This document shows, one piece after another, positions 1 to 30,100 of a stretch of 64,000 bases of DNA. The translations under genes were made by a program, and so were the position numbers. The notes beneath the pieces are model-generated. The model was not told where the DNA came from, did not search any database, and saw only the letters and a list, made by a program, of their open reading frames with translations. Position 1 is the stretch's first letter. Each line of letters opens with the position of its first letter. The stretch is from Octopus sinensis (lineage: Eukaryota): the NCBI RefSeq assembly GCF_006345805.1, contig NC_043019.1, forward strand, positions 18,351,360 to 18,415,359, written 5' to 3'.

Positions 1-145
1 TAGTTATAAGGGCTTTTCTTAATTCTGTGTCTGTATTAGCCATGATTTCCTGGTCTCAAGTTCATGTCCTTATCGAGGTGGTCTTATCAGAAGTTATAGC
101 CATTGTTTAAGTTAAATGATGCGTAACAAAGACCTTGATTCATTA

Positions 146-218
146 TACTACTACTACTACTACTACTACTAGATAATAATAATAATAATAATAATAATGA
201 TGATAATGATAATAATAA
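146..218. repeat. (CTA)n/(ATA)n microsatellite, probably the tail of an adjacent minus-strand SINE remnant (219-356)
   Basis: tactactacta...ataataataat run, followed by ctggtacttatttcatcgacccc-aaaggatgaaaggcaaag, a SINE-like sequence in reverse orientation. Confidence 0.65.
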
Positions 219-732
219 CTGGTACTTATTTCATCGACCCCAAAAGGATGAAAGGCAAAGCCAACACTGGTGGAATTTGAACTGACAACATAAACATGGA
301 CGAAATACCACTAAGCATTTTGTCCAGGCAGCTAACAATTCTGCCAGCTGACCGCCTGATGATAATAAATATAATAATAATAATAACAACAATGATGATG
401 GTTTCAACTTTTGCCATTAAGGCAGCAATTTTAGGAGTCGATTAGATTGACCCATATTTATGTTCTCTAGCACACACAGATATTGGTAATGACACTGGAC
501 GCAGAAAAGTTTGGTAAAATTTACCTTCCCAATGAGAACACAAGTGTTTCCATGTTTTAAAGAATTCTCTTCTTACAAAAGACGTTTTTTTTTTCTGGCA
601 CAAGTTTAGTCTCTCCAAGTAAATATTTCATCTACCAAAGCCTTCACTACTCTCCAAATAACTCTTTAAATATGTTTAGTCATAAAAGTGTTCGGATTGA
701 TCTGTGGTTTGAATTTCTCATTCATTTTTCAG

Positions 733-798
733 ATTCTTGAATCTGGTGATGTAGCTGATGCAGTCCTGTTTGCACTTCAGGTACCCAAACACTGTGAG
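733..798 (+). CDS. DHRS11: DHRS11-like SDR, duplicate copy A, penultimate coding exon (ILESGDVADAVLFALQVPKHCE)
   Basis: ttttcag acceptor and gtgggt donor; identical to 55650-55715. Confidence 0.85.
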
Positions 799-1898
799 GT
801 GGGTGTCCTTTGATCTCTTTTAATAACCCCTACTTTGTTGAGATTGCAACAAAGATATATTTGTTGTGGGTTGAGGGGAGGAGCAGAGTGTTGCAATGAA
901 CGAGAGGGAAAATGTTTACAGCAAGTGAAGCAGTTGCACAGTTTGTGTGAGATGTGCAATGGCAGCAGTTGTTGAATTGTGTAACTGGAGTGGAATAAGT
1001 TCATGCAGCCATTGGTCTTGGTTGGGCTGTGATGGCTGTCACCATCTTGGTCCCTAGCTGATGCTCGCTGGCTTCAGCCGTATCACGACGACTCTCAATT
1101 TAGCAGATAAACAAACTATAGCTAATGTCTGTCTGTCAAAGAAAATGAACAAAAGGCAACATTGTTAATGACAATCTGTTTCTTCTTCAAGAATTTGAGT
1201 GGTCATTTGTTTGCTGACATGACCATGTTTGTGTTATTTTTGATCTGAACAGTAATTCAGGTTCAATTCCAATTCCTAGGCAGTGAGTTGGTGCCTATGC
1301 ACTTTACCAAATATTCTTGCTCTTAGATTATTGAGTAATCTGATAATACAAATTCTATATCATCTACTTCATATAGCGCCTAGATGTTGGGAAAGTACCA
1401 TCTACAATAAACTGAGGCTGACCAATGCTTTCCTCATCATTATCATTTAATGTCCATGTTCGATGCTGGCAAGTGTTGGCTGCTTTGGCTGGACCAGATG
1501 AGTTGGAGGACTGCATCATTCTCAATTGTCTACTTTGGAATGGTTTCTACAGCTGGATGCCCTTCCTAACACCAATCAATTTACAATGTTCTGACTGCTT
1601 TTTTCTGCTGGGCACTGTAAAATGTGCAAGACTAAAAAGACCCTGCAACTGTGTAAGAATATAATAGAAAGAGATGTGTCTTTATGCTAGGTGTTGAGAA
1701 GTTAAAAGTATAAACCTCTTGGCATTTAGTATAAAGAAACTTCACTTTCCAACCATAGAAAAATCTGCCTCAACAAATTCCTTCTGACTCATAGAAAAGT
1801 GGACATTAAATGCTGATGCTTCTGTCTCATTCCTCTGACAACCCTTCCAATTTGGTCTCTATTAGAAAAGATAAATACCAAATTTTGTTTTCTTTCAG

Positions 1899-1940
1899 AT
1901 TAATGAAATTATGATGAGACCAACTAAGCAGGGCTACTGA
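1899..1940 (+). CDS. DHRS11: DHRS11-like SDR, duplicate copy A, last coding exon (INEIMMRPTKQGY*)
   Basis: tttctttcag acceptor and TGA stop; identical to 56801-56842. Confidence 0.85.
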   Translation: MNEIMMRPTKQGY

Positions 1941-2597
1941 AAAACTGACAAAGCAAAACGAACAGATCGTCCATTTTCCACTTGACAAGGACACAAGAGA
2001 GCATTTGATCACATATGGACCTTGATCTCTGCTTCAGAGCAACCATTTTTTTAAAGACACTACTCCAGTATGACTACAATGAGTGAAACAAGTAAAAATT
2101 AAAGACATCTTGCCTCGTATCATTAATGTCTTATGAAATTCTATTCCTTCTTCTTCTCTCTCTCTTTTACTCTCACTTTCTTTTCTCTCCCCTAAAAGAA
2201 AATTCTAGATGTCTCTAAAATAGTTGAACTTGTAAAAAAGGTAGCAGGGAGCATTTTGTATTATTCATTCATTCATTTATGTCTCCCCATAGAAGACAGG
2301 GAATCTATTTCTACACACTGGAGCTCCTTACAGTGGAAGACCTGGTGAGATGCATATACTAGAAGTCCTTATTTATTGATGCTGGTGAGGCATCCACTAC
2401 CAGGGAGTATAAAAAGACTCCATAAGATCAAAAGACTTAGCACCCTTCAAAGCTGACCTCCTAGACATAGTAGCCAAGGTCCTCTAGACCTTTTCAAATT
2501 AGATTGTAAAAAATTGACATTGGAACTTTTAGGAATTCATAAAACTGACATATAATGGTAGAGGCATGGCTGAGTTGTTAAGAAACTTGCTTTACAA

Positions 2598-5500
2598 TAG
2601 TGAATTGTGTAGAATACTGCTGATTCACTGTGCCTCTCATAAAGCAATCTAGGTGGTTTCTAGCTATTACCAGAGATAATACTGAAAGGAACATATCTAG
2701 TGATTTGTGTAGAACCTGCTGATTCACTGTGCCTCTCATAAATGCAATCTAGTGTTTCTAGCTGTTACCAGAGATAATACTGAAAGGAACATATCTAGTG
2801 AATTTGTGTAGAATACTGCTGATTCACTGTGCCTCTCATAAATGCAATCTAGGTGTTTCTAGCTATTACCAGAGATAATACTGAAAGGAACATTCTAGTG
2901 AATTTGTGTAGAATACTGCTGATTCACTGTGCCTCTCATAAATGCAATCTAGGTGTTTCTAGCTGTTACCAGAGATATACTGAAAGGAACATATCTAGTG
3001 AATTTGTGTAGAATACTGCTGATTCACTGTGCCTCTCATAAATGCAATCTAGGTGTTTCTAGCTGTTACCAAGATAATACTGAAAGGAACATATCTAGTG
3101 AATTTGTGTAGAATACTGCTGATTCACTGTGCCTCTCATAAATGCAATCTAGGTGTTTCTAGCTGTTACCAGAGATAATACTGAAAGGAACATATCTAGT
3201 GAATTTGTGTAGAATACTGCTGATTCACTGTGCCTCTCATAATGCAATCTATGTTTCTAGCTGTTACCAGAGATAATACTGAAAGGAACATATCTAGTGA
3301 ATTTGTGTAGAATACTGCTGATTCACTGTGCCTCTCATAAATGCAATCTAGGTGTTTCTAGCTGTACCAGATAAATACTGAAAGGAACATATCTAGTGAA
3401 TTTGTGTAGAATACTGCTGATTCACTGTGCCTCTCATAAATGCAATCTAGGTGTTTCTAGCTATTACGAGATAATACTGAAAGGAACATATCTAGTGAAT
3501 TTGTGTAGAATACTGCTGATTCACTGTGCCTCTCATAAATGCAATCTAGGTGTTTCTAGCTGTTACCAGAGATAATACTGAAAGGAACATATCTAGTGAA
3601 TTTGTGTAGAATACTGCTGATTCACTGTGCCTCTCATAAATGCAATCTAGGTGTTTCTAGCTATTACCAGAGATAATACTGAAAGGAACATATCTAGTGA
3701 ATTTGTGTAGAATACTGCTGATTCACTGTGCCTCTCATAAATGCAATCTAGGTGTTTCTAGCTGTTACCAGAGATAATACTGAAAGGAACATATCTAGTG
3801 AATTTGTGTAGAATACTGCTGATTCACTGTGCCTCTCATAAATGCAATCTAGGTGTTTCTAGCTGTTACCAGAGATAATACTGAAAGGAAATATCTAGTG
3901 AATTTGTGTAGAATACTGCTGATTCACTGTGCCTCTCATAAATGCAATCTAGGTGTTTCTAGCTATTACCAGAGATAATACTGAAAGGAACATCTAGTGA
4001 ATTTGTGTAGAATACTGCTGATTCACTGTGCCTCTCATAAATGCAATCTAGGTGTTTCTAGCTATTACCAGAGATAATACTGAAAGGAACATATCTAGTG
4101 AATTTGTGTAGAATACTGCTGATTCACTGTGCCTCTCATAAATGCAATCTAGGTGTTTTTAGCTATTACCAGAGATAATACTGAAAGGAACATATCTAGT
4201 GAATTTGTGTAGAATACTGCTGATTCACTGTGCCTCTCATAAATGCAATCTAGGTGTTTCTAGCTATTACCAGAGATAATACTGAAAGGAACATATCTAG
4301 TGAATTTGTGTAGAATACTGCTGATTCACTGTGCCTCTCATAAATGCAATCTAGGTGTTTCTAGCTGTTACCAGAGATAATACTGAAAGGAACATATCTA
4401 GTGAATTTGTGTAGAATACTGCTGATTCACTGTGCCTCTCATAAATGCAATCTAGGTGTTTCTAGCTGTTACCAGAGATAATACTGAAAGGAACATATCT
4501 AGTGAATTTGTGTAGAATACTGCTGATTCACTGTGCCTCTCATAAATGCAATCTAGGTGTTTCTAGCTATTACCAGAGATAATACTGAAAGGAACATATC
4601 TAGTGAATTTGTGTAGAATACTGCTGATTCACTGTGCCTCTCATAAATGCAATCTAGGTGTTTCTAGCTGTTACCAGAGATAATACTGAAAGGAACATAT
4701 CTAGTGAATTTGTGTAGAATACTGCTGATTCACTGTGCCTCTCATAAATGCAATCTAGGTGTTTCTAGCTGTTACCAGAGATAATACTGAAAGGAACATA
4801 TCTAGTGAATTTGTGTAGAATACTGCTGATTCACTGTGCCTCTCATAAATGCAATCTAGGTGTTTCTAGCTGTTACCAGAGATAATACTGAAAGGAACAT
4901 ATCTAGTGAATTTGTGTAGAATACTGCTGATTCACTGTGCCTCTCATAAATGCAATCTAGGTGTTTCTAGCTGTTACCAGATAATACTGAAAGGAACATA
5001 TCTAGTGAATTTGTGTAGAATACTGCTGATTCTGTGCCTCTCATAAATGCAATCTAGTGTTTTCTCTAGCGTTACCAGAGATAATACTGAAAGGAACATA
5101 TCTAGTGAATTTGTGTAGAATACTGCTGATTCACTGTGCCTCTCATAAATGCAATCTAGGTGTTTCTAGCTGTTACCAGAGATAATACTGAAAGGAACAT
5201 ATCTAGTGAATTTGTGTAGAATACTGCTGATTCACTGTGCCTCTCATAAATGCAATCTAGGTGTTTCTAGCTGTTACCAGAGATAATACTGAAAGGAACA
5301 TATCTAGTGAATTTGTGTAGAATACTGCTGATTCACTGTGCCTCTCATAAATGCAATCTAGGTGTTTCTAGCTATTACCAGAGATAATACTGAAAGGAAC
5401 ATATCTAGTGAATTTGTGTAGAATACTGCTGATTCACTGTGCCTCTCATAAATGCAATCTAGGTGTTTCTAGCTGTTACCAGAGATAATACTGAAAGGAA

Positions 5501-8500
5501 CATATCTAGTGAATTTGTGTAGAATACTGCTGATTCACTGTGCCTCTCATAAATGCAATCTAGGTGTTTCTAGCTGTTACCAGAGATAATACTGAAAGGA
5601 ACATATCTAGTGAATTTGTGTAGAATACTGCTGATTCACTGTGCCTCTCATAAATGCAATCTAGGTGTTTCTAGCTGTTACCAGAGATAATACTGAAAGG
5701 AACATATCTAGTGAATTTGTGTAGAATACTGCTGATTCACTGTGCCTCTCATAAATGCAATCTAGGTGTTTCTAGCTATTACCAGAGATAATACTGAAAG
5801 GAACATATCTAGTGAATTTGTGTAGAATACTGCTGATTCACTGTGCCTCTCATAAATGCAATCTAGGTGTTTCTAGCTGTTACCAGAGATAATACTGAAA
5901 GGAACATATCTAGTGAATTTGTGTAGAATACTGCTGATTCACTGTGCCTCTCATAAATGCAATCTAGGTGTTTCTAGCTGTTACCAGAGATAATACTGAA
6001 AGGAACATATCTAGTGAATTTGTGTAGAATACTGCTGATTCACTGTGCCTCTCATAAATGCAATCTAGGTGTTTCTAGCTGTTACCAGAGATAATACTGA
6101 AAGGAACATATCTAGTGAATTTGTGTAGAATACTGCTGATTCACTGTGCCTCTCATAAATGCAATCTAGGTGTTTCTAGCTATTACCAGAGATAATACTG
6201 AAAGGAACATATCTAGTGAATTTGTGTAGAATACTGCTGATTCACTGTGCCTCTCATAAATGCAATCTAGGTGTTTCTAGCTGTTACCAGAGATAATACT
6301 GAAAGGAACATATCTAGTGAATTTGTGTAGAATACTGCTGATTCACTGTGCCTCTCATAAATGCAATCTAGGTGTTTCTAGCTATTACCAGAGATAATAC
6401 TGAAAGGAACATATCTAGTGAATTTGTGTAGAATACTGCTGATTCACTGTGCCTCTCATAAATGCAATCTAGGTGTTTCTAGCTGTTACCAGAGATAATA
6501 CTGAAAGGAACATATCTAGTGAATTTGTGTAGAATACTGCTGATTCACTGTGCCTCTCATAAATGCAATCTAGGTGTTTCTAGCTGTTACCAGAGATAAT
6601 ACTGAAAGGAACATATCTAGTGAATTTGTGTAGAATACTGCTGATTCACTGTGCCTCTCATAAATGCAATCTAGGTGTTTCTAGCTGTTACCAGAGATAA
6701 TACTGAAAGGAACATATCTAGTGAATTTGTGTAGAATACTGCTGATTCACTGTGCCTCTCATAAATGCAATCTAGGTGTTTCTAGCTGTTACCAGAGATA
6801 ATACTGAAAGGAACATATCTAGTGAATTTGTGTAGAATACTGCTGATTCACTGTGCCTCTCATAAATGCAATCTAGTGTTTTCTATGAATTTGTGTAGAA
6901 TACTGCTGATTCACTGTGCTCTCATAAATGCATCTAGGGTTTCTAGCATTAACAGAGATAATACTGAAAGGACATAGCTAGTGAATTGTGTAGATACGGC
7001 TGATTCACTGTGCCTCTCATAAATGCAATATTAGGGTGTTTCTAGCTGTTACCAGAAGACTATTACGGAACGGAACATATCTAGGGGATTTGTGTAGATA
7101 CTGCGCTGATTCACGGTGCCTCTCATAAAGGCAATTTAGGGGTTTTCTAGTGTTACCAGAGATAATACTGAAAGAACATATCTAGTGAATTTGGTGTAGA
7201 ATACTGCTGATTCACGGTGCCTCTCATAATGCAATCTAGGTGTTTCTAGCTATTACCAGAGATAATACTGAAAGGAAACATATCTAGTGAATTTGTGTAG
7301 AAACTGCTGATTCACTGTGCCTCTCATAAATGCAATCTAGGGTTTCTAGCTATACCAGAGATAATACTGAAAGGAAAACATATCTAGTGAATTGTGTTTG
7401 TGTAGAAATACTGCTGATTCACTGTGCCTCTCATAAATGCAATCTAGGTGTTTCTAGCATTACCAGAGATAATACTGAAAGAACATATCTAGTGAATTTG
7501 TTGTAGAATGAGATACTGCTGATTCACTGTGCCTCTAATAAATGCAATCTAGGTGTTTCTAGCTGTTACCCAGAATAATACTGAAAGGAAATATCTAGTG
7601 AAATTTGTGTAGAATACTGCTGATTCACTGTGCCTCTCATAAATGCAATCTAGGTGTTCTAGCTATTACAGAGATAATACTGAAAGGAACATATCTAGTG
7701 AATTTGTGTAGAATACTGCGGACTGATCACTGTGCCTCTCATAAATGCAATCTAGGTGTTCTAGCTGTTACCAGAGATATAATACTGAAAGGAACATATC
7801 TAGTGAATTTGTGTAGAATACTGCTGATTCACTGTGCCTCTCATAAATGCAATCTAGGTGTTTCTAGCTATAACCAGAGGTAATACTGAAAGAACATATC
7901 TAGTGATTTTTGTAGAATACTGCTGATTCACTGTGGCCTCTCATAAATGCAATCTAGGTGTTTCTAGCTGTTACCAGAGATAATACTGAAAAGAAAATAT
8001 CTAGTGAATTTGTGTAGAATACTGCTGATCACTGTGCCTCTCATAAATGCAATCTAGGTTGTTTCTAGCTGTACCAGAGATAATACTGAAAGGAACATAT
8101 CTAGTGAATTTTGTGTAGAATACTGCTGATTCACTGTGCCTCTCATAAATGCAATCTAGGGTTTCTAGCTATTGACAAGAGATAATACTTAAGGAACATA
8201 TCTAGTGAATTTGTGTAGAATACTGCTGATTCACTGTGCCTCTCATAAATGCAATCTAGGTGTTTCTAGCTGTTACCAGGAAGATAATACTGAAAGGAAA
8301 CATATCTAGTGAATTTGTGTGTAGAATACTGCTGATTCTGTGCCTCTCATAAATGCAATCTAGGTGTTTCTAGCTATTACCAGAGATAATACTGAAAGGA
8401 CATATCTAGTGAATTTGTGTAGAATACTGCTGATTCACTGTGCCTCTCATAAATGCAATCTAGGTGTTTCTAGCTGTTACCAGAGATAATACTGAAAGGA

Positions 8501-11500
8501 ACATATCTAGTGAATTTGTGTAGAAGAATACTGCTGATTCACTGTGCCTCTCATAAATGCAATCTAGGGTTTCTAGCTGTTACCAGAGATAATACTGAAG
8601 AGAAATATATAGTGAATTTGTGTAGGGGTATAATCCTGCGATTCACTGTGCCTCTCATAAAATGCAATCTAGTTGTTTTCTATCCGTTACCAGAGATAAT
8701 AGTGAAGATAAGGAACATATCTAGTGAAGTGTGTAGAATACTGCTGATTCACTGTGCCTCTCAAAGGCAATCTAGGTGTTTCTAGCTATTGACCAGAGAT
8801 ATACTGAAAGGAACTGAAACATGTCAGTGAATTTGTGTAGAATACTGCTATTTCACTGTGCTCTATAAATGCTTTCTAGGAGGTTTTAGCTAGAACCAGA
8901 GATAATACTGAAAGGAACATATCTAGTGATTGTGTGTAGGAATACTGCTGATTCACTGTGCCTCTCAGAAATGCAATCTAGGTGTTTTAGCTATTACCAG
9001 AGATAAATATGACGAAAGAACATATCTAGTGAATTGTGTAGAATAGCTGATTCACTGTGCCTCTCATAAATGCAATCTAGTGTTTCTAGCTGTTACCAGC
9101 AATAATACTGAAAGGAAAATATCTAGTGAATTTGTGTAGAATACTGCTGATTCACTGTCCTCTCATAAATGCAATCTAGTTGTTTCTAGCTATTACCAGA
9201 GATAATACTGAAGGAACATATCTAGTGAATTTGTGTTAGAATACTGCTGATTCACTGTGCCTCTCATAAATGCAATCTAGGTGTTTTAGCTATTACCAGA
9301 GATAATACTGAAAGGAACATATCTAGTGAATTTGTGTAGAATACGCTGATTCACTGTGCCTCTCATAAAATGAAATGTATCTAGGTGTTCTAGCTATTAC
9401 CAGAGATAATAATACTGAAAGGAACATATCTAGTGAATTTGTGTAGGAACTGCTGATTTCACTGTGCCTCTCATAAATGCATTTCTAGGTGTTTCTAGCT
9501 ATTACCAGAGTAATACTTGAAAGGAACATATCTAGTGAATTTGTGTAGAATACTGCTGATTCACTGTGCCTCTCATAAATGCAATCTAATGTTTCTAGCT
9601 GTTACCAGAGATAATACTGAAAGGAACATATCTAGTGAATTTGTGTAGAATACTGCTGATTCACTGTGCCTCTCAGAAATGCAATCTAGGTGTTTCTTGC
9701 TGTTACCAGAGATAATACTGAAAGGAACAATATAGTGAATTGTGTTAGAATACTGCTGATTCACTGTGCCTCTCATAAATGCAATCTAGGTGTTTTCTAG
9801 CTATTACCAGAGATAATACTGAAAGGAACATATCTAGTGAATTTGTGTAGAATACTGCTGATTCACTGTGCCTCTCATAAATGCAATCTAGGTGTGTTTC
9901 TAGCTATTACCAGAGATAATACTGAAAGGAACATATCTAGTGAATTTGTGTAGAATACTGCTGATTCAATGTGCCTCTCATAAATGCAATCTAGGTGTTT
10001 CTAGCTGTTACCAGAGATAATACTGAAAGGAACATATCTAGTGAATTTGTGTAGAATACTGCTGATTCACTGTGCCTCTCATAAATGCAATCTAGGTGTT
10101 TCTAGCATTACCAGAGATAATACTGAAAGGAACATATCTAGTGAATTTGTGTAGGTTAGAATACTGCTGATTCACTGTGCCTCTCATAAATGCAATCTAG
10201 GGTTTCTAGCTATTACCAGAGATAATACTGAAAGGAACATATCTAGTGAATTGTGTGTAGAATACTGCTGATTCACTGTGCCTCTCATAAATGCAATCTA
10301 GGTGTTTCTAGCTTTACCAGAGATAATACTGAAAGGAACATATCTAGTGAATTTGTGTAGAATACTGCTGATTCACTGTGCTCTCATAAATGCAATCTAA
10401 ATGTTTCTAGCTATTACCAGAGATAATACTGAAAGGAACATATCTAGTGAATTTGTGTAGAATACTGCTGATTCACGCTTGCCTCTCATAAATGCAATCT
10501 AGGTGTTTCTAGCTGTTACCAGAGATATACTGAAAGGAACAAATCTATTGTGTAGAATTTGTGTAGAATACTGCTGATTCACTGTGCCTCTCATAAATGC
10601 AATCTAGGTGTTTTCTAGCTGTTACCAGAGATAATACTGAAAGGAACATATCTAGTGAATTGTGTAGAATACTGCTGATTCACTGTGCCTCTCATAAATG
10701 CAATCTAGGTGTTTCTAGCTGTTACCAGAGATAATACTGAAAGGAACATATCTAGTGAATTTGTGTAGAATACTGCTGATTCACTGTGCCTCTCATAAAT
10801 GCAATCTAGGTGTTTCTAGCTATACCAGAGATAATACTGAAAGGAGATATCTAGTGAATTTGTGTAGAATACTGCTGATTCACTGTGCCTCTCATAAATG
10901 CAATCTAGGTGTTTTTTCTAGCTTACCAGAGATAATACTGAAAGGAACATATCTAGTGAATTTGTGTAGAATACTGCTGATTCACTGTGCCTCTCATAAA
11001 TGCAATCTAGGTGTTTCTAGCTGTTACCAGAAATAATACTGAAAGGAACATATCTAGTGAATTGTGTAGAATACTGCTGATTCACTGTGCCTCTCATAAA
11101 TGCAATCTAGGTGTTTTTCTAGCTATTACCAGAGATAATTTACTGAAAGGAACATATCTAGTGAATTGTGTAGAATACTGCTGATTCACTGTGCCTCTCA
11201 TAAATGCAATCTAGGTGTTTCTAGCTATTACCAGAGATAATACTGAAAGGAACATATCTAGTGAATTTGTGTAGAATACTGCTGATTCACTGTGCCTCTC
11301 ATAAATGCAATCTAGGTGTTTCTAGCTGTTACCAGAGATAATACTGAAAGGAACATATCTAGTGAATTTGTGTAGAATACTGCTGATTCACTGTGCCTCT
11401 CATAAATGCAATCTAGGTGTTTCTAGCTATTACCAGAGATAATACTGAAAGGAAATATCTAGTGAATTTGGTTAGAATACTGCTGATTCACTGTGCCTCT

Positions 11501-14500
11501 CATAAATGCAATCTAGTGTTTCTAGCTGTTACCAGAGATAATACTGAAAGGAACATATCTAGTGAATTTGTGTAGAATACTGCTGATTCACTGTGCCTCT
11601 CATAAATGCAATCTAGGTGTTTCTAGCTGTTACCAGAGATAATACTGAAAGGAACATATCTAGTGAATTTGTGTAGAATACTGCTGATTCACTGTGCCTC
11701 TCATAAATGCAATCTAGGGGTTTCTAGCTATTACCAGAGATAATACTGAAAGGAACATATCTAGTGAATTTGTGTAGAATACTGCTGATTCACTGTGCCT
11801 CTCATAAATGCAATCTAGGTGTTTCTAGCTATTACCAGAGATAATACTGAAAGGAACATATCTAGTGAATTTGTGTAGAATACTGCTGATTCACTGTGCC
11901 TCTCATAAATGCAATCTAGGTTTTTCTAGCTGTTACCAGAGATAATACTGAAAGGAACATATCTAGTGAATTTGTGTAGAATACTGCTGATTCACTGTGC
12001 CTCTCATAAATGCAATCTAGGTGTTTCTAGCTATTACCAGAGATAATACTGAAAGGAACATATCTAGTGAATTTGTGTAGAATACTGCTGATTCACTGTG
12101 CCTCTCATAAATGCAATCTAGGTGTTTCTAGCTATTACCAGAGATAATACTGAAAGGAACATATCTAGTGAATTTGTGTAGAATACTGCTGATTCACTGT
12201 GCCTCTCATAAATGCAATCTAGGTGTTTCTAGCTGTTACCAGAGATAATACTGAAAGGAACATATCTAGTGAATTTGTGTGTAGAATACTGCTGATTCAC
12301 TGTGCCTCTCATAAATGCAATCTAGGTGTTTCTTTCTAGCATTACCAGAGATAATACTGAAAGGAACATATCTAGTGAATTTTTAGAATACTGCTGATTC
12401 ACTGTGCCTCTCATAAATGCAATCTAGGTGTTTCTAGCTGTTACCAGAGATAATACTGAAAGGAACATATCTAGTGAATTTGTGTAGAATACTGCTGATT
12501 CACTGTGCCTCTCATAAATGCAATCTAGGTGTTTCTAGCTGTTACCAGAGATAATACTGAAAGGAACATATCTAGTGAATGTGTGTGTAGAATACTGCTG
12601 ATTCACTGTGCCTCTCAAAATGCAATCTAGGTGTTCTAGCTATTACCAGAGATAATACTGAAAGAACATATCTAGTGAATTTGTGTAGAATACTGCTGAT
12701 TCACTGTGCCTCTCATAAATGCAATCTAGGTGTTTTAGCTATTACCAGAGATAATACTGAAAGGAACATATCTAGTGAATTGTGTATAGATACTGCTGAT
12801 TCACTGTGCCTCTCATAAATGCAATCTAGGTGTTTCTAGCTATTACCAGAGATAATACTGAAAGGAACATATCTAGTGAATTGTGTAGAATACTGCTGAT
12901 TCACTGTGCCTCTCATAAATGCAATCTAGGTGTTTCTAGCTATACCAGAGATAATACTGAAAGGAACATATCTAGTGAATTTTTGTAGAATACTGCTGAT
13001 TCACTGTGCCTCTCATAAATGCAATCTAGGTGTTTCTAGCTGTTACCAGAGATAATACTGAAAGGAACATATCTAGTGAATTTGTGTAGAATACTCTGAT
13101 TCACTGTGCCTCTCATAAATGCAATCTAGGTGTTTCTAGCTGTTACCAGAGAATACTGAAAGGAACATATCTAGTGAATTTGTGTAGAATACTGCTGATT
13201 CACTGTGCCTCTCATAAATGCAATCTAGGTGTTTCTAGCTATTACCAGAGATAATACTGAAAGGAACATATCTAGTGAATATGTGTATGTGTGTAGAATA
13301 CTGCTGATTCACTGTGCCTCTCATAAATGCAATCTAGGTGTTTCTAGCTGTTACCAGAGATAATACTGAAAGGGAACATATCTAGTGAATTGTGTAGAAT
13401 ACTGCTGATTCACTGTGCCTCTCATAAATGCAATCTAGGTGTTCTAGCTGTTACCAGAGATAATACTGAAAGGAACATATGTAGTGAATTTTGTGTAGGA
13501 TATTGCTGATTCACTGTGCCTCTCATAAATGCATTCTAGGTGTTTCTAGCTATAACCAGAGATAATACTGAAAGGAACATATCTAGTGAATTTGTGTAGA
13601 ATACTGCTGATTCACTGTGCCTCTCATAAATGCAATCTAGGTGTTTCTAGCTATTACCAGAGATAATACTGAAAGGAACATATCTAGTGAATTTGTGTAG
13701 AATACTGCTGATTCACTGTGCCTCTCATAAATGCAATCTAGGTGTTTCTAGCTGTTACCAGAGATAATACTGAAAGGAACATATCTAGTGAATTTGTGTA
13801 GAATACTGCTGATTCACTGTGCCTCTCATAAATGCAATCTAGGTGTTTCTAGCTGTTACCAGAGATAATACTGAAAGGAACATATCTATTGTGAATTGTG
13901 TGAATGTAGAATACTGCTGATTCACTGTGCCTCTCATAAATGCAATCTAGGTGTTTCTAGCTGTTACCAGAGATAATACTGAAAGGAACATATCTAGTGA
14001 ATTTGTGTAGAATACTGCTGATTCACTGTGTCCCTCATAAATGCAATCTAGGTGTTTCTAGCTATTACCAGAGATAATACTGAAAGGAACATATCTAGTG
14101 AATTGTGTAGAATACTGCTGATTCACTGTGCCTCTCATAAATGCAATCGGTGTTTCTAGCTATTACCAGAGATAATACTGAAAGGAACATATCTAGTGAA
14201 TTTGTGTAGAATACTGCTGTGATTCACTGTGCCTCTCATAAATGCAATCTAGGTGTTTCTAGCTGTTACCAGAGATAATACTGAAAGGACAAGGAACATA
14301 TCTAGTGAATTTGTGTAGAATACTGCTGATTCACTGTGCCTCTCATAAATGCAATGTAGGTGTTTCTAGCTTTTACCAGAGATAATACTGAAAGGAACAT
14401 ATCTAGTGAATTTGTGTAGAATACTGCTGATTCACTGTGCCTCTCATAAATGCAATCTAGGTGTTTCTAGCTGTTACCAGAGATAATACTGAAAGGAACA

Positions 14501-17500
14501 TATCTAGTGAATTGTGTAGAATACTGCTGATTCACTGTGCCTCTCATAAATGCAATCTAGGGTTTCTAGCTATTACCAGAGATATACTATATGAAAGGAA
14601 CATATCTAGTGAATTTGTGTAGAATACTGCTGATTCACTGTGGCCTCTCATAAATGCAATCTAGGTATTTCTAGCTATTACCAGAGATAATACTGAAAGG
14701 AACATATCTAGTGAATTGTGTAGAATACTGCTGATTCACTGTGCCTCTCATAAATGCAATCTAAGGTTTCTAGCTGTTACCAGAGATAATACTGAAAGGA
14801 ACATATCTAGTGAATTTGTGTAGAATACTGCTGATTCACTGTGCCTCTCATAAATGCAATGTAGGTGTTTCTAGCTTTTGCCAGAGATAATACTGAAAGG
14901 AACATATCTAGTGAATTTGTGTAGAATACTGCTGATTCACTGTGCCTCTCATAAATGCAATCTAGGTGTTTCTAGCTGTTACCAGAGATAATACTGAAAG
15001 GAACATATCTAGTGAATTTGTGTAGGATACTGCTATTTCACTGTGCTCTCATAAATGCAATCTAGGGGTTCTAGCTATTACCAGAGATAATACTGAAAGG
15101 AACATATCTAGTGAATTTGTGTAGAATACTGCTGATTCACTGTGCCTCTCATAAATGCAATCTAGGTGTTTCTAGCTATACCAGAGATAATACTGAAAGG
15201 AACATATCTAGTGAATTTGTGTAGAATACTGCTGATTCACTGTGCCTCTCATAAATGCAATCTAGGTGTTTCTAGCTGTTACCAGAGATAATACTGAAAG
15301 GAACATATCTAGTGAATTTGTGTAGAATACTGCTGATTCACTGTGCCTCTCATAAATGCAATCTAGGGTTTTCTAGCTATTACCAGAGATAATACTGAAA
15401 GAAACATATCTAGTGAATTTGTGTAGAATACTGCTGATTCACTGTGTCCCTCATAAATGCAGTCTAGGTGTTTCTAGCTATTACCAGAGATAATACTGAA
15501 CGGAACATATTTAGTGCATTGTGTAGAATACTGCTGATTCACTGTGCCTCTCATAAATGCAATCTAGGTGTTTCTAGCTGTTACCAGAGATAATACTGAA
15601 AGGAACATATCTAGTGAATTTGTGTAGAATACTGCTGATTCACTGTGCCTCTCATAAATGCAATCTAGGTGTTTCTAGCTTTTACCAGAGATAATACTGA
15701 AAGGAACATATCTAGTGAATTTGTGTAGAATACTGCTGATTCACTGTGCCTCTCATAAATGCAATCTAGGTGTTTCTAGCTGTTACCAGAGATAATACTG
15801 AAAGGAACATATCTAGTGAATTTGTGTAGAATACTGCTGATTCACTGTGCCTCTCATAAATGCAATCTAGGTGTTTCTAGCTAATACTAGAGATAATACT
15901 GAAAAGAACATATCTAGTGAATTTCTGTAGAATACTGCTGATTCACTGTGCCTCTCATAAATGCAATCTAGGTGTTTCTAGCTAATACTAGAGATAATAC
16001 TGAAAAGAACATATCTAGTGAATTTCTGTAGAATACTGCTGATTCACTGTGCCTCTCATAAATGCAATCTAGGTGTTTCTAGCTAATACTAGAGATAATA
16101 CTGAAAGGAACATATCTAGTGAATTTCTGTAGAATACTGCTGATTCACTGTGCCTCTCATAAATGCAATCTAGGTGTTTAGCTTTTACCAGAGATAATAC
16201 TGAAAGGAACATATCTAGTGAATTTGTGTAGAATACTGCTGATTCACTGTGCCTCTCATAAATGCAATCTAGGTGTGTTTCTAGCTGTTACCCAGAGATA
16301 ATACTGAAAGGAACATATCTAGTGAATTTGTGTAGAATACTGCTATTCACTGTGCCTCTCATAAATGCAATCTAGGGGTTTTCTAGCTATACCAGAGATA
16401 ATACTGAAAGGAACATATCTAGTGAATTTGTGTAGAATACTGCTGATTCACTGTGCCTCTCATAAATGCAATCTAGGTGTTTCTAGCTAACCAGAGATAA
16501 TACTGAAAGGAACATATCTAGTGAATTTTGTGTAGAATACTGCTGATTCACTGTGCCTCTCATAAATGCAATCTAGGTGTTTCTAGCTGTTACCAGAGAT
16601 AATACTGAAGGAACATATCTAGTGAATTTGTGTAGAATACTGCTGATTCACTGTGCCTCTCATAAATGCAATCTAGTGTTTCTAGCTGTTACCAGAGATA
16701 ATACTGAAAGGAACATATCTAGTGAATTTGTGTAGAATACTGCTGATTCACTGTGCCTCTCATAAATGCAATCTAGGTGTTTCTAGCTGTTACCAGAGAT
16801 AATACTGAAAGGAACATATCTAGTGAATTTGTGTAGAATACTGCTGATTCACTGTGCCTCTCATAAATGCAATCTAGGTGTTTCTAGCTATTACCAGAGA
16901 TATATACTGAAAGGAACATATCTAGTGAATTTGTGTAGAATACTGTGTAGAATACTGCTGATCACTGTGCCTCATAAATGCAATCTAGGTGTTTTTAGCT
17001 GTTACCAGAGATAATACTGAAAGGAACATATCTAGTGAATTTGTGTAGAATACTGCTGATTCACTGTGCCTCTCATAAATGCAATCTAGGGTTTCTAGCT
17101 GTTACCAGAGATAATACTGAAAGGAACATATCTAGTGAATTTGTGTAGAATACTGCTGATTCACTGTGCCTCTCATAAATGCAATCTAGGTGTTTCTAGC
17201 TTTTACCAGAGATAATACTGAAAGGAACATATCTAGTGAATTTGTGTAGAATACTGCTGATTCACTGTGCCTCTCATAAATGCAATCTAGGGTTTCTAGC
17301 TATAACCAGAGATAATACTGAAAGGAACATATCTAGTGAATTTGTGTAGAATACTGCTGATTCACTGTGCCTCTCATAAATGCATTCTAGGTGTTTCTAG
17401 CTATTACCAGAGATAATACTGAAAGGAACATATCTAGTGAATTTGTGTAGAATACTGCTGATTCACTGTGCCTCTCATAAATGCAATCTAAATGTTTCTA

Positions 17501-19923
17501 GCTGTTACCAGAGATAATACTGAAAGGAACATATCTAGTGAATTTGTGTAGAATACTGCTGATTCACTGTGCCTCTCATAAATGCAATCTAGGTGTTTCT
17601 AGCTATTACCAGAGATAATACTGAAAGGAACATATCTAGTGAATTTGTGTAGAATACTGCTGATTCACTGTGCCTCTCATAAATGCAATCTAGGTGTTTC
17701 TAGCTGTTACCAGAGATAATACTGAAAGGAACATATCTAGTGAATTTGTGTAGGATACTGCTATTTCACTGTGCCTCTCATAAATGCATTCTAGGGGTTT
17801 CTAGCTATAACCAGAGATAATACTGAAAGGAACATATCTAGTGAATTTGTGTAGGATACTGCTGATTCACTGTGCCTCTCATAAATGCAATCTAGGTATT
17901 TCTAGCTAATACCAGAGATAATACTGAAAGGAACATATCTAGTGAATTTGTGTAGAATACTGCTGATTCACTGTGCCTCTCATAAATGCAATCTAAATGT
18001 TTCTAGCTGTTACCAGAGATAATACTGAAAGGAACATATCTAGTGAATTTGTGTAGAATACTGCTGATTCACTGTGCCTCTCATAAATGCAATCTAGGTG
18101 TTCTAGCTGTACCAGAGATAATACTGAAAGGAACATATCTAGTGAATTTGTGTAGAATACTGCTGATTCACTGTGCCTCTCATAAATGCAATCTAGGTGT
18201 TTCTAGCTGTACCAGAGATAATACTCAAAGGAACATATCTAGTGAATTTGTGTATAAATACTGCTGATTCACTGTGCCTCTCATAAATGCAATCTAGCGT
18301 TTCTAGCTATTACCAGAGATAATACTGAAAGGAACATCTAGTGAATTTGTGTGAATTGTGTAGAATACTGCTGATTCACTGTGCCTCTCATAAATGCAAT
18401 CTAGGTGTTTCTAGCTATTACCAGAGATAATACTGAAAGGAACATATCTAGTGAATTTGTGTAGAATACTGCTGATTCACTGTGCCTCTCATAAATGCAA
18501 TCTAGGTGTTTCTAGCTGTTACCAGAGATAATACTGAAAGGAACATATCTAGTGAATTTGTGTAGAATACTGCTGATTCACTGTGCCTCTCATAAATGCA
18601 ATCTAGGTGTTTCTAGCTGTTACCAGAGATAATACTGAAAGGAACATATCTAGTGAATTTTGTGTAGGATATTGCTATTTCACTGTGCCTCTCATAAATG
18701 CATTCTAGGGGTTTCTAGCTATAACCAGAGATAATACTGAAAGGAACATATCTAGTGAATTTGTGTAGGATACTGCTGATTCACTGTGCCTCTCATAAAT
18801 GCAATCTAGGTATTTCTAGCTAATACCAGAGATAATACTGAAAGGAACATATCTAGTGAATTTGTGTAGAATACTGCTGATTCACTGTGCCTCTCGTAAA
18901 TGCAATCTAAATGTTTCTAGCTGTTACCAGAGATAATACTGAAAGGAACATATCTAGTGAATTTGTGTAGAATACTGCTGATTCACTGTGCCTCTCATAA
19001 ATGCAATCTAGGTGTTTCTAGCTGTTACCAGAGATAATACTGAAAGGAACATATCTAGTGAATTTGTGTATAATACTGCTGATTCACTGTGCCTCTCATA
19101 AATGCAATCTAGGTGTTTCTAGCTATTACCAGAGATAATACTGAAAGGAACATATCTAGTGAATTTGTGTAGAATACTGCTGATTCACTGTGCCTCTCAT
19201 AAATGCAATCTAGGTGTTTCTAGCTATTACCAGAGATAATACTGAAAGGAACATATCTAGTGAATTTTGTAGAAGTATGAATACTGCTGATTCACTGTGC
19301 CTCTCATAAATGCAATCTAGGTGTTTCTAGCTGTTACCAGAGATAATACTCAAAGGAACATATCTAGTGAATTTGTGTATAATACTGCTGATTCACTGTG
19401 CCTCTCATAAATGCAATCTAGGTGTTTCTAGCTATTACCAGAGATAATACTGAAAGGAACATATCTAGTGAATTTGTGTAGAATACTTCTGATTCACTGT
19501 GCCTCTTATAAATGCAATCTAGCTGTTTCTAGCTATTACCAGAGTTAATACTGAAAGGAACATATCTAGTGAATTTGTATAGAATACTGCTGATTCACTG
19601 TGCCTCTCATAAATGCAATCTAGGTGTTTCTAGCTGTTATCAGAGATAATACTGAAAGGAACATATCTAGTGAATTGTGTAGAATACTGCTGATTCACTG
19701 TGCCTCTCATAAATGCAATCTAGGTGTTTCTAGCTATTACCAGAGATATACTGAAAGGAACATATCTAGTGAATTGTGTAGAATACTGCTGATTCACTGT
19801 GCCTCTCATAAATGCAATCTAGGTGTTTCTAGCTATTACCAGAGATAATACTGAAAGGAACATATGTAGTGAATTTGTGTAGAATACTGCTGATTCACTG
19901 TGCCTCTCATAAATGCAATCTAG
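2598..19923 (+). repeat. 101-bp tandem satellite, ~170 units, derived from a hAT transposase coding segment
   Basis: Unit gaatttgtgtagaatactgctgattcactgtgcctctcataaatgcaatctaggtgtttctagct(g/a)ttaccagagataatactgaaaggaacatatctagt; period 101 measured from 4201 to 4302; no variable spacers. Confidence 0.98.
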
Positions 19924-20703
19924 CTGCGTTTGCATACCTTGTTAAAATTATGTTGATGAGGCAGCTAAAAGCATTAAAACTTACAGGTAAACTTCGAGAA
20001 TGAATGTCTTGGCAAACCTTTACAGAGAACTAAAACCTGTTGGTTCATTACTTATAACATGATTGATATGTACATCCAAGTGAATCTGTTTTTACGCTCT
20101 TTTCAAGGCAATCCAAACTGGTTGATTATCTTTTGACTCCATGTGATTATAATGATCTGCAGACTTAAAGACAATTTAGGAAAGTTACGCTCAGTAATAA
20201 TTGCCTTGCAAAAGACAGAAATCTATTTGAGAGATGCTCAAATACTTTTTGATGAAATTCCCGCATTGTATCCTTACGAAGAGTTGAAAAAATATTTGCT
20301 TCCATCAACAGCCCTTGTGGAGAGCCCAAATTTTGAAAAGTGGAATTGGGAAAATTTTACAACATGCAGAAGCAGAGTTAACTGCGGATAAAGTGGCCGC
20401 TCTACATCAGCTGAAAGTGGTTACAGACACAGCAATCTGATTTACCTGTAGATGATGATTTCGCTTCAATTTGTTTGAAAAAAATACAAAAAGGATAAAA
20501 TTTCACCTTGGCAATATCTGAACGGCAGATTTTTGTTACCAACGTCCAACATCTTGGAACATTTCTTCACGTCAGCAGGTTGCGCTTTTAATGATTTTCG
20601 GCAATACTTAACACCAATGAATTTAGAAATGCAATCATTTCTAAAAGTCAATCGCACTTTCTGGGATGAAGACCTAGTTTCAGAAGTCTGCAATCGTTCA
20701 TGA
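19829..20703 (+). pseudogene. Degraded hAT-superfamily transposase (catalytic core to C-terminal dimerisation region)
   Basis: Motifs in the expected order across frameshifts and stops: RDN...HCASHKCNLA (D and CxxH); TKTCWFITYNM (TRWxSxxxM-like, ~20035); LRSVIIALQ...LFDEI...YL...VESPNFE; then YLNGRFLLPTSNILEHFFTSAG...LTPMNLEMQSFLKVNRTFWD with TGA at 20701-20703. Confidence 0.85.
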
Positions 20704-20779
20704 TTTTTTGCTATATTAAAATTGTAGCGTACACTTGAGTAAAACTCCTCTCTTATATATATATATATATATATACACA

Positions 20780-21773
20780 TACGAATGCAGTAGATAACAG
20801 CCAGCCTCTGGCTGCATTTTGGACCCCGCTGTGTCCACTATTCTGATTGGTTGGTATTGGCGCAATTTGTCTCTTGCTCTAGCATGAGTCAATATGCAGC
20901 CCAACCAATCGCAGCCTTCAAATAAGGTCACATGTGACACCCTGTTTTTCTACTCAACTTTGAGCCTACAACTCCTCATAAAAACCCAGTTTTCTCCTTG
21001 TCTCGATCCTGTCTTTTAGTCAGACTTTTAAGGTCTAGCCACTGACACACAAGACACCGCCAGTTTCAGTGACAACACAACAGCAGCACGTTGAGACTTA
21101 TCGACTTCATCCAACAGCATTCGGCAAACTCCATTTCTGTCGCCACCATCAACCCTAACGTCATCATCTCTCTAAGTACACAACTCAACAAGCAACTCAC
21201 CCTGGTCACAACACTGCACTGTTTGTGAATTACTTCACCATGGACCAACAGCAAATATACAAGTGGCGAGAACTCCTGTACCAAGTGACCCAGGCAGCAG
21301 CATCACAGCCACAACATCACATACGACATGTACCGCAACCAGCTCTGCATCATCACTGCAACTTCTTGATACATTATTTCAACTATCGTGTACAATTGAC
21401 TATGAACTGGTATTTATCATTCTTGTGTCTATGAATTTACTCCTCACTCCAATGGCTACAGAAGCTTTCACTGTCTCGTCTTCATCGCCATCCTTATATG
21501 TTCTTAACACGCATACGTCTATGTCTGCATACACACGCATACATCTTATTCTTATGACGGCCTGTCTATTATTCTGTATATACAACGCACACACAATCAC
21601 ACATGTTAACATATCACCAAATCTTCTCTTAAACATTCTGCCCGGTTGTGTCTCTTATTTCCCTCTGGCACATATATGCATTGTTCTATTTATATTCATT
21701 GTATCGACCGTGTGATGTACTAAGGAGCCATTCTCATCACCTCGCTTCGCACGGATGTTACAAGTTGGTGACC
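20780..21773 (+). mobile_element. Probable LTR-retrotransposon LTR remnant with a truncated PBS
   Basis: CCAAT boxes in both orientations and a TATA-like cataaaaa (~20977). Ends ...gatgttaca (21762), followed by agttggtgacc, which resembles a tRNA-Trp PBS (TGGTGACCCCG). 5' boundary uncertain. Confidence 0.4.
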
Positions 21774-22451
21774 TGTTCCAGCTCCTTGAAACTACAAAAA
21801 TAATTATAATGGGAGAAGAAGATACTCCACAGGTATCCATTCCATTATAGAACGTTTCAATTGTGCAACTCGTTTGAGAAACTCTTTCAATTAAAGAACT
21901 ACAATTTATTTGTTTTTCAACTACTGTTCAATGTAGAGTATACATATTGTTTGTTCTCAATTTTAAATCAATAAAACTGAACTTTGCACATTTTCTGATA
22001 ATAAAGTTTTTGGAAACTATAAGACGTGCCTTTTATTTTCCTATCATTTTGGCTCTTATCTAAAACGAAGCTAACACTCCAAACTATATGGTATTTTTAT
22101 GTTTGGCAAAATAATTGAGAATTGATTATGATAATTGATTGGCCTATATCCCAATTTAAAATTAATTGATTGGAAAGGTTCCAAGAGAGTGAGTTGGAGT
22201 GAGAGAGATGTTGTAGTTTCAAGGAGCTTGTAGTTTCAAGGAGTCCTTGAGGGACACAACATCCCGCACTCTACGGTACTGATGGCCAGCTGGTTGGAAC
22301 TCGTTTTGTGTCAGCCACCCCTGGTGGTATATGTATTTCACACCCAGCCCATCAAGGACTGCTAGACAGACGACTGAAACTGTTTTTTATGGCATGTCTG
22401 TTGCTCCATACTTTACAGATAAGGAAAATGCAAGGTGCTTTTTGGTTTTCT

Positions 22452-26947: not shown

Positions 26948-27079
26948 ATGGACAAATGGGTTAAACGGACAGCCTTGGTTACTGGGGCTTCGTGTGGCAT
27001 TGGTGCCGCTATATGCAGAAAGTTGGGGAAGTCTGGCATGAATGTTGTTGGTTGCGGAAGAAATGTGCAGCGCATCCAA
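26948..27079 (+). CDS. DHRS11: Dehydrogenase/reductase SDR family member 11-like, coding exon 1
   Basis: MDKWVKRTALVTGASCGIGAAICRKLGKSGMNVVGCGRNVQRIQ; TGxxxGIG Rossmann motif; donor gtaatt at 27080. Confidence 0.93.
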
Positions 27080-27122: not shown

Positions 27123-30100
27123 TATTTGTCTCTCCTTCCTTCATATACACTCTCACATTTGTCTCTCTTTCCTTCATATACACCCTCTTATTTCTCTCTC
27201 CTTCCTTCATATACACTCATATTTGTCTCACCTACCTTCATATACACTCTCATATTTGTCTCTCTTTCCTTCATATACACCCTCTTATTTCTCTCTCTTT
27301 CCCTCATGTACACTTTCATATTTGTCTCTCCTTCCTTCATATATACCCTCTTAATTCTCTCTCCTTCCTTCATATACACTCATATTTGTTTTTCCTTCCT
27401 TCATGTACATCCTCTTATTTCTCTCTCCTTCCTTCATATACACCCTCTTATTTCTCTCTCCTTCCTTCATATACACTCATATTTGTCTTTCCTTCCTTCA
27501 TATACATCCTCTTATTTCTCTCTCCTTCCTTCATATACACTCATATTTGTCTCTCCTTCCTTCATAAACACCCTCGTATTTTTCTCTCCTTCCTTCATAT
27601 ACACTCTCATATTTGTCTTTCCTTCCTTCATATACACCCTCTTATTTCTCTCTGCTTCCTTCATATACACTCATATTTGTCTCTGCTTCCTTCATATACA
27701 CTCATATTTCTCTCTCCTTCCTTCATATACACCCACTTATTTGTCTCACCTTCCATCAACTACGCTCACACATTTGTCTCTCCTTCCTTCATATACACTC
27801 TCATATTTGTCTCTCCTTCTTTCATATACACTTTCGTATTTGTCTCTCCTTCCTTCATATACACTCTCGTATTTGTCTCTCCTTTCTTCATATACACTCT
27901 CGGATTTGTCTCTCCCTCCTTCATATACACTCATATTTGTCTCTCCTTCCTTCATATACGCTCTCACATTTTTCTCTCCTTCCTTCATATACACTCTCGT
28001 ATTTGTCTTTCCTTCCTTCATAAACATTCTCGTATTTTTCTCTTCTTCATTCATATAAACCCACTTATTTGTCTCTCCTTCTTTCAAATACACTCTCCAA
28101 TTTGTCTCTCCTCCCTTCATATACACTTTCGTATTTGTCTCTCCTTCCTTCATATACACTCTCGTATTTGTCTCTCCTTCCTTCATATACACTATCGTAT
28201 TTGTCTCTCCTTCCTTCATATACACTCTCGAAGTTGTCTCCTTCCTTCATATACACTGATATTTGTCTCTCCTTCCTTCATATACGCTCTCACATTTTTC
28301 TCTCCTTCCTTCATATACACTGATATATGTCTCTCCTTCCTTCATATACACTCTCGTATTTGTCTCTCCTTCCTTCATATACACTCTCATATTTGTCTCT
28401 CTTTCCTTCATATACACCCTCTTATTTCTCTCTCCTTCACACATATACACTCTCATATTTGTCTCTCCTTCCTTCATACACACCCTCTTATTTCTCTCTC
28501 CTTCCTTCATATGCACTCTCATATTTGTCTCTCCTTCCTTCATATACGCCCTCTTATTTGTCACTCCTTCCTTCATATACACTCTCGTATTTGTCTCTCC
28601 TTCCTTCATATACACTCTCGTATTTGTCTCTCCTTCCTTCATATACACTCTCGTATTTGTCTCTCCTTCATTCATATACACTGATATTTGTCTCTCCTTC
28701 CTTCATATACGCTCTCGTATTTGTCTCTCCTTCCTTCATATACATTCTCGTATTTGTCTCTCATTCCATCATATACACACTCGTATTTGTCTCTCCTTCC
28801 TTCATATACGCTCTCACATTTTTCTCTCCTTCCTTCATATACACTGATATATGTCTCTCCTTCCTTCATATACACTCTCGTAATTGACTCTCCTTCCTTC
28901 ATATACACTCTGGAATTTGTCTCTCCTTCCTTCATATACACTCTCGTATTTGTCTCTCCTTCCTTCATATACGCTCTCACATTTTTCTCTCCTTCCATCA
29001 TATACACTGATATATGTCTCACCTTCCTTCATATACACTCTCGAATTTGTCTCTCCTTCCTTCATATACACTCTCGTATTTGTCTCCTTCCTTCATATAC
29101 ACTAATATTTTTTCTCCTTCCTTCATATACGCTCTCACATTTTTCTCTCCTTCCTTCATATACACTGATATATGTCTCTCCTTCCTTCACATACACTCTC
29201 GTAATTGACACTCCTTCCTTCATATACACTCTCGAATTTGTCTCTCCTTCCTTCATATACACTCTCGAATTTGTCTCTCCTTCCTTCATATACACTCTCG
29301 TATTTGTCTCTCCTTCCTTCATATACACTCTCGAATTTGTCTCTCCTTCCTTCATATACACTCTCGTAATTGACTCTCCTTCCTTCATATACACTCTCGA
29401 ATTTGTCTCTCCTTCCTTCATATACACTCTCGAATTTCTCTCTCCTTCCTTCATATACACTCTCGTATTTGTCTCTCCTTCCTTCATATACACTCTCGAA
29501 TTTGTCTCTCCTTCCTTCATATACACTCTCGTAATTGACTCTCCTTCCTTCATATACACTGATATTTGTCTCTCCTTCCTTCATATACGCTCTCACATTT
29601 TTCTCTCCTTCCTTCATATACACTGATATATGTCTCTCCTTCCTTCATATACACTCTCGTAATTGTCTCCTTCCTTCATATACACTGATATTTGTCTCTC
29701 CTTCCTTCATATACACTCTCGTATTTTTCACTCCTTCCTTCATATACACTCTCGTATTTGTCTCTCCTTCCATCATATACACTCTCGTGTTTGTCTCTCA
29801 TTCCTTTATATACACTCTCAAATTTGTCTCTCCTTCCATAATATACATTCTCGTCTTTGTCTCTCCTTCCTTCATATACACTCTCGTATTTGTCTCTCCT
29901 TCATTCATATACACTCTCGTATTTGTCTCCCCTTCATTCATATACACTCTCGTATTTGTCTCTCCTTCCTTCATATACACTCTTATATTTTTCTCTCCTT
30001 CCTCATATACACTCTCGTATTTGTCTCTCCTTCCATCATATACACTCTCGTATTTGTCTCTCTTTCCTTCATATACACTCTCGTATTTGTCTCTCCTTCC

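Follow-up and report, generated by a model that had tools for sequence, protein, structure and literature searches.

Transposase coding DNA is already known to have given rise to satellites. According to the relevant passages of the source, the CficCl-61-40 satellite of Chenopodium derives from the tnp2 transposase of the CACTA element Jozin and has a monomer of 39–40 bp that occurs in many arrays and amounts to as much as 3.8% of the plant genome, the arrays adjoining a partial transposase fragment that runs in the same direction (PMC7320549). In Locusta, as described in the corresponding passage, LmiSat15-190 and LmiSat34-299 match the coding regions of Gypsy and Polinton, and LmiSat29-68 and LmiSat55-90 match hAT elements outside the coding region; the passage gives no junction with a parent element (PMC4935994). 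LINE ORF2 was the source of the satellites PROsat, Pvc 20, and HinfI, and gag-derived cases exist too, according to the pertinent part of a review (PMC9659126) that also agrees with a premise of the original prediction for the locus described here, namely that satellites of this kind usually come from the termini or noncoding parts of elements. In the literature that we searched, mostly outside subscription papers, we found no satellite derived from a hAT coding region (supplementary satellitome tables could hold one) and no report of the present array.

The array lies in a stretch of 64,000 nucleotides from Octopus sinensis (NC_043019.1, positions 18,351,360 to 18,415,359), which we call the window and whose features are collected in Table 1. 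It is a long, homogenized, head-to-tail run of a monomer that matches part of a transposable element, and in this sense it is a satellite derived from such an element. Like CficCl-61-40, it has a monomer taken from transposase coding DNA and adjoins a transposase remnant that runs in the same direction; unlike that satellite, it has a 101-bp monomer that contains catalytic motifs, occupies one locus in an animal genome, derives from a hAT element, and has a sister copy with a single unit. The Locusta satellites resemble it in being homologous to mobile elements, coding regions and hAT elements included, whereas the hAT cases among them are noncoding. The LINE ORF2 satellites likewise represent coding DNA made tandem but come from retroelements. 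Thus, the array adds a case from a hAT coding segment to the satellites already known to derive from transposase coding DNA.

Table 1. Features of the window and of the intact family copy (window positions unless a locus is named)
Feature	Coordinates	Strand	Remark
5' flank, not hAT	1..2597	+	reaches 1.3 kb upstream of the window; near-identical to 53598-57497
Tandem array	2598..19923	+	55-bp partial unit, then 171 units of 101 bp
Last unit, continuing into parent element	19823..19923	+	
3' part of dead hAT copy	19924..20726	+	insertion domain, W288, E463, stop 20701-20703
1.1-kb insertion within hAT 3' noncoding part	20727..21847	.	not in family copies
3' subterminal region of hAT copy	21848..22184	+	3' terminal inverted repeat lost
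First coding exon, short-chain dehydrogenase (Pfam adh_short)	26948..27079	+	about 7 kb beyond the array; also present in sister block
Second array, 33 bp x 447	27123..41755	+	directly after dehydrogenase exon; only about 4 units in sister block
Near-identical downstream copy of the 5' flank	53598..57497	+	7 substitutions in 3,890 aligned bases (99.8%)
Lone intact family copy, 510-aa ORF	L001:879-2411 (G000:C21, about 24.85 Mb)		both inverted repeats, perfect 8-bp target duplication

Tandem Repeats Finder reported the array in two pieces, one of 42.6 copies with 98% matches (2598–6881) and one of 128.6 copies with 93% matches (6882–19923), in keeping with the original prediction of a 101-bp unit amplified about 170-fold. 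Unit-by-unit alignment revealed two main variants, present in 34 and 16 exact copies, that differ by one base; an A/G dimorphism is located at unit position 13. Divergence is 0.55% among the clean units at the 5' end and 3.2% among the units at the 3' end, near which older, more variable units and a nine-unit higher-order repeat are found. Of 80 substitution variants, 17 are seen three times or more, chiefly in the 3' third, and the lag-9 periodicity of the variant sets was matched by 13 of 2,000 shuffles. Because the phase jumps by 40 nt at unit 43 (about 6880) and heavy indel noise resembling read errors extends from there across about 6.9–10.6 kb, the count of 171 is a figure of the assembly, and the true length of the array and its 5' boundary are in doubt. 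A protein product of the array can be rejected: the longest open frame in clean units is 38 codons, and a frame of 105 codons arises solely across noisy units.

We also searched the assembly (G000) for further array loci. All 100 exact matches to the unit junction fell inside the array (a reversed control gave none), and a diagnostic 28-mer had 133 matches, 132 in the array and one in the sister copy. The array is therefore a single-locus macrosatellite as far as the assembled sequence is concerned.

As judged by sequence comparison, the parent of the array is a family of hAT transposases, and the original identification was right. The unit, which has lost 2 nt, represents about residues 208–242 of the family transposase and covers the second catalytic Asp and the CxxH motif. 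The two peptide pieces that had been read from each unit are present in translation, split by the frameshift that this deletion causes, and the spacing of 18 residues that had been given for the hAT segment holds between D214 and C233 of the intact family copy L001. A genome search with the last unit and its flank gave at least 48 matches, 39 of the 67 candidates having been scored. We fetched 30 family loci, 26 of which carry a single full match to the unit (76%–84%) that is colinear with the 3' flank; the match was partial or split in three and absent from one, and none of the 30 has the unit in tandem. The family measures 2.4–2.7 kb, has terminal inverted repeats, 8-bp target duplications, a BED finger, and the DDE and CxxH motifs, and includes at least 40 decayed copies. 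The 5' inverted repeat was found in 14 of the 30 loci, the 3' repeat in 22, and both in 10. Target-site duplications of hAT elements are 8 bp long; flanks of this length agreed within two mismatches at seven of the 10 loci with both ends and perfectly at three. Two family loci on contig C8, L020 and L021, which are 430 kb apart, are near-identical in sequence and flanks and represent a recent or false duplication, in addition to the one considered below.

The protein encoded by L001 (P0001) has the DDE triad (D145, D214, E463), an insertion domain, the CxxH motif (C233-x-x-H236), and the conserved Trp (W288); for the roles of these motifs we relied on the relevant passages of the Kat1 paper (PMC4763223). 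D214, W288, and E463 are invariant across the 25 aligned homologs (25 of 37 matches). A zf-BED domain scored above the cut-off in P0001 and is present in 17 of the 25 homologs; Dimer_Tnp_hAT was detected in seven of the 25 at E ≤ 0.05 and is absent from P0001 itself. Searching solved structures with P0001 by phmmer gave no match, and only a profile of the family reached the Hermes transposase (E 5.5e-7); in that alignment CxxH, RW, and the Glu align directly, and the second Asp of the family sits one column off that of Hermes. Six fragments of the window matched no hAT family in Pfam (0 of 6), and a single-sequence structure model of the family transposase (pLDDT 35) was too poor for its RNase H fold to be judged. 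With Hermes and other hAT transposases (PDB 6dww, 4d1q, 2bw3, 8edg) the family shares the BED finger, DDE, CxxH, the conserved Trp, and the hAT C-terminal region, but it is a distant and short lineage (about 510 aa), and its copy in the window encodes no working protein. Colinearity within the family and the profile match to Hermes together support the view that the unit originated in hAT coding DNA, from the DN..CxxH segment, and was amplified in place.

What follows the array is 86% identical to L001 when the last unit and the part up to 20726 are taken together. It has a 24-nt deletion and additional frameshifts and stops; seven frame-breaking indels fall in 19830–20700, one of them in the last unit. 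The last unit had been described as reading in frame into its parent, and a read-out from HKCNL-AAFAY to GKLRE does continue for 26 codons, but it meets a stop at 20001–20003; the TRW-like and PTSN motifs noted beyond the array are present in translation but lie in other frames. Compared with the sister copy, which retains the 3' inverted repeat, the window copy has a 41-bp deletion that removed this repeat, and it is devoid of the 5' repeat as well. Its 5' half was absent within 50 kb upstream. The possibility that the window copy is an active or autonomous hAT element is thus rejected, given the absent 5' half, the seven frameshifts, the stops, and the deleted 3' repeat. The insertion at 20727–21847 contains a stop-free stretch of 179 codons with no Pfam match.

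The intact copy is of interest in its own right. The 510-aa frame of L001 is identical to a named Octopus sinensis protein, and it has 510-aa counterparts in O. vulgaris (502 residues identical) and O. bimaculoides (492 identical). Its changes comprise 39 silent and 24 replacement substitutions and no indels (Fisher p 7e-9 versus other copies), and of its 23 copy-specific residues 19 are shared in O. vulgaris and 12 in O. bimaculoides. On this substitution pattern, which is that of purifying selection, and on its conservation in three Octopus species, L001 is likely to be an orthologous domesticated hAT/ZBED-like gene in which all catalytic residues have been kept. A survey of transposon-derived factors describes, in its pertinent passage, two Octopus ZBED genes that are truncated and lack a full transposase (PMC10027918); because these are truncated, L001 seems not to be among them.

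The 5' side of the array is without any hAT sequence, a feature that had been overlooked. The flank ends bluntly at 2597, exactly where the array starts, inside a high-copy dispersed repeat, and the join is either a real breakpoint or a join made by the assembly. No contig crossed 2597/2598 among the 32 of 2,046 pieces listed, an absence that does not amount to proof; contigs of two short-read runs, X3 and X4, extend 39 and 32 letters beyond 2597 into different sequence, and two 1-bp deletions specific to the flank are missing from the runs. The sister block starts at G000:C23:18328874, with the one-unit copy located 22 kb upstream of the window. It contains exactly one unit and a near-identical dehydrogenase gene. 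Its hAT copy shows the 2-nt and 24-nt deletions of the window copy together with an internal deletion, retains the 3' inverted repeat intact, and has the same flank as the window copy. This hAT remnant is truncated by a LINE-like reverse-transcriptase fragment, beside which lies a GC-rich minisatellite of 61/123 bp (L032:5331–6061). Near the hAT remnant the two blocks have diverged by 1.9%, with numerous indels in addition, and inside the remnant 11 of 209 bases differ. The sister copy is unlikely to be a collapsed array, because its unit has two private changes and its exit shows these 11 differences.

We lean toward the view that the sister block is the other haplotype, placed in tandem by the assembly, because no bridging piece was listed, the X3 and X4 contigs diverge past 2597, and the flank-specific deletions are missing from the runs. 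That it is instead a true paralog within a tandem cluster of dehydrogenase genes has a little less than an even chance; the 1.9% divergence with its indels, the 11 differences in 209 bases, and a third, diverged gene copy, which indicates a real tandem cluster, argue for this reading. Summed contig depth does not discriminate between the two without a single-copy reference depth. There are three tandem short-chain dehydrogenase copies (window 26948–57497 and G000:C23:18306823–18353956), two of them nearly identical, and these two are a possible false duplication. The third copy is 82% identical in its first exon (protein) and 99.6% in a later exon, a contrast that suggests exchange or gene conversion between copies. 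Positions 43477–46931 of the window hold decayed LINE-like frames in both orientations, which resemble endonuclease and reverse transcriptase on visual inspection; this stretch is absent from the matching place in the sister block.

How old was the element when it was amplified? Measured against the commonest base in each column of the family alignment, 29 family copies have diverged by 4.7%–7.9%, and their changes are evenly distributed among the codon positions. The unit departs from the majority at 15 of 97 bases (15.5%), in addition to its 2-nt deletion, and its ratio of 11 replacement to 4 silent changes resembles that of the pooled dead copies (1,880 to 673). Fourteen of these changes are common to the last unit and 13 to the sister copy, leaving one or two private ones. 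By this measure of decay, the parent element was long dead before amplification, and the amplified piece is a frameshifted, neutrally decayed pseudogene segment. Since the array, its exit, and the sister copy have mutations in common, the expansion is recent relative to the insertion. The unit junction retains eight bases like the downstream family sequence before it jumps back, and it lies between two short imperfect direct repeats. Seeds of this sort are frequent: L001 has 591 imperfect 10-mer repeats 50–250 bp apart. In addition, diverged internal tandem repeats of about 80–95 bp occur in the 5' noncoding region of the family (L001:437–726 and equivalents), which is not the part that was amplified.

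A family copy decayed first, acquiring in the segment about 14 changes and the 2-nt deletion, all of which recur in the array, its exit, and the sister copy. We propose that a first duplication then arose between the short imperfect direct repeats flanking the segment. Slippage or unequal crossing-over would have expanded and homogenized the array, leaving older units at its 3' edge, and the one-unit upstream copy may represent both the state before expansion and the missing 5' entry of the array. A contig of X3, in which a unit junction has two letters of the sister copy's exit, is a weak hint of an early form of the junction. We consider it highly probable that the array represents 171 assembled copies of a piece of a dead hAT element, that it probably arose through slippage or unequal exchange at a time when the element had long been dead, and that it is probably neutral, with neutrality being judged from the decay of the sequence. 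Chance could account for the catalytic motifs in the unit: of the element's 101-bp windows, 59% fall within the ORF and 19% include one of six key catalytic codons. The special role of the active site that the original prediction implied did not survive these comparisons, given that the segment was already dead when amplified, that a fifth or so of windows hold a key codon, and that another family copy, L017, has a duplication at a different place in the element. A special predisposition of the segment to amplify is likewise rejected, its DNA conservation being unremarkable and repeat seeds being common. The duplication in L017 (2204–2507), a dead copy, is a two-copy tandem of 153 bp, 98% identical, over the catalytic Glu region, and has the appearance of an unexpanded seed. 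Counting against chance slippage, windows that span D214 to H236 make up 1.4% of 101-bp windows (a post hoc figure), and at the protein level the segment holds three of the 11 invariant columns of the 25 aligned homologs.

Other explanations of the array fare less well. The phase jump near 6880, the strong indel noise across 6.9–10.6 kb, and the blunt 5' join, with no bridging contig among the pieces listed, are what an artefact of long reads or amplification might produce. An artefact is nevertheless scarcely credible, as the array is very deep in short-read contigs. Summed contig depth, which is not a measure of copy number, was 703,525, 221,961, 360,492, and 29,923 for array bins in four public runs and 80, 42, 78, and 24 for flank bins in the same runs, and thus the array exceeded the flank by thousands of times in all four. 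(The runs represent three samples from three studies under two organism labels, and the assembly may have been built from one of these samples.) Moreover, a contig in X4 jumps back by 101 bases, which is a unit-to-unit joint, and the 17 recurring variants build the nine-unit repeat. Doubt touches the length and the 5' boundary of the array; its existence is not in question. An altogether different proposal is that the array was selected as a silencing device, which would direct small RNAs or heterochromatin against active hAT relatives through their catalytic segment, as the original prediction suggested. Tandem arrays are able to seed heterochromatin, the unit spans the second Asp and CxxH, and some dead copies have as many as 26 consecutive bases in common with it and match as many as 13 of its 101 21-mers with no more than one mismatch. 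Yet we found no young subfamily for such a device to act on: the nearest relative of L001 among 40 scored candidates is 93% identical over 601 bp, and L001 alone among the scored copies has a stop-free frame of more than 500 codons. The unit matches L001 over at most 12 nt exactly, with none of 101 21-mers within one mismatch and none of 101 28-mers within two, and its longest exact match to 24 dead copies is 10–26 nt (this k-mer comparison covers 25 of the 30 loci, five with absent, split, or displaced units being omitted). Nor does the segment, which had been supposed to be the most conserved part of active relatives, stand out from the rest of the ORF in DNA conservation among the copies (it ranks 86th of 144 windows), and the unit had decayed before it was amplified. 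Because we found no young copies and a poor match to the sole intact copy, silencing of active relatives is unsupported by the sequence comparisons, and we regard a selected device as very unlikely. None of the 24 runs listed with array sequence was an RNA run, which is no evidence either way on expression.

The surroundings of the array raise one more alternative. Here the two arrays comprise 171 and 447 units, against one and about four in the sister block, and independent slippage alone leaves unexplained why two unrelated arrays should be long in the same block. The two arrays bracket the dehydrogenase exon, and as a cis-acting structural variant they might alter its expression, having been expanded together in a hotspot of recombination or replication stress. 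The three tandem dehydrogenase copies, with their 99.6% exon against an 82% first exon, are a sign of exchange that would fit such a hotspot, but the 101-bp array is about 7 kb away from the exon, and in a genome so full of repeats the coincidence of two long arrays in one block may be accidental. We judge this explanation to be quite unlikely. It is also doubtful that the birth of a satellite is seen here as a polymorphism, with haplotypes that carry either a single hAT active-site segment or hundreds of units together with the expanded 33-bp repeat, and that a block-wide process of expansion builds both arrays around the first dehydrogenase exon and alters expression of the gene.

Amplification by slippage or unequal exchange remains our preferred explanation, and the array gives no hint of a new mechanism. 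Its value is as an example of the birth of a satellite, for which one can see the source family, the junction, a one-unit "before" copy, and the shared mutations by which the events are placed in order. Should the two blocks be alleles, array length (one versus at least 171 units) could be typed across octopus populations, and rates of expansion and homogenization would be directly measurable. The analysis also warns that a dehydrogenase gene may have been falsely duplicated in the assembly. Finally, the full-length hAT transposase found in three Octopus species may merit more attention than the array itself.
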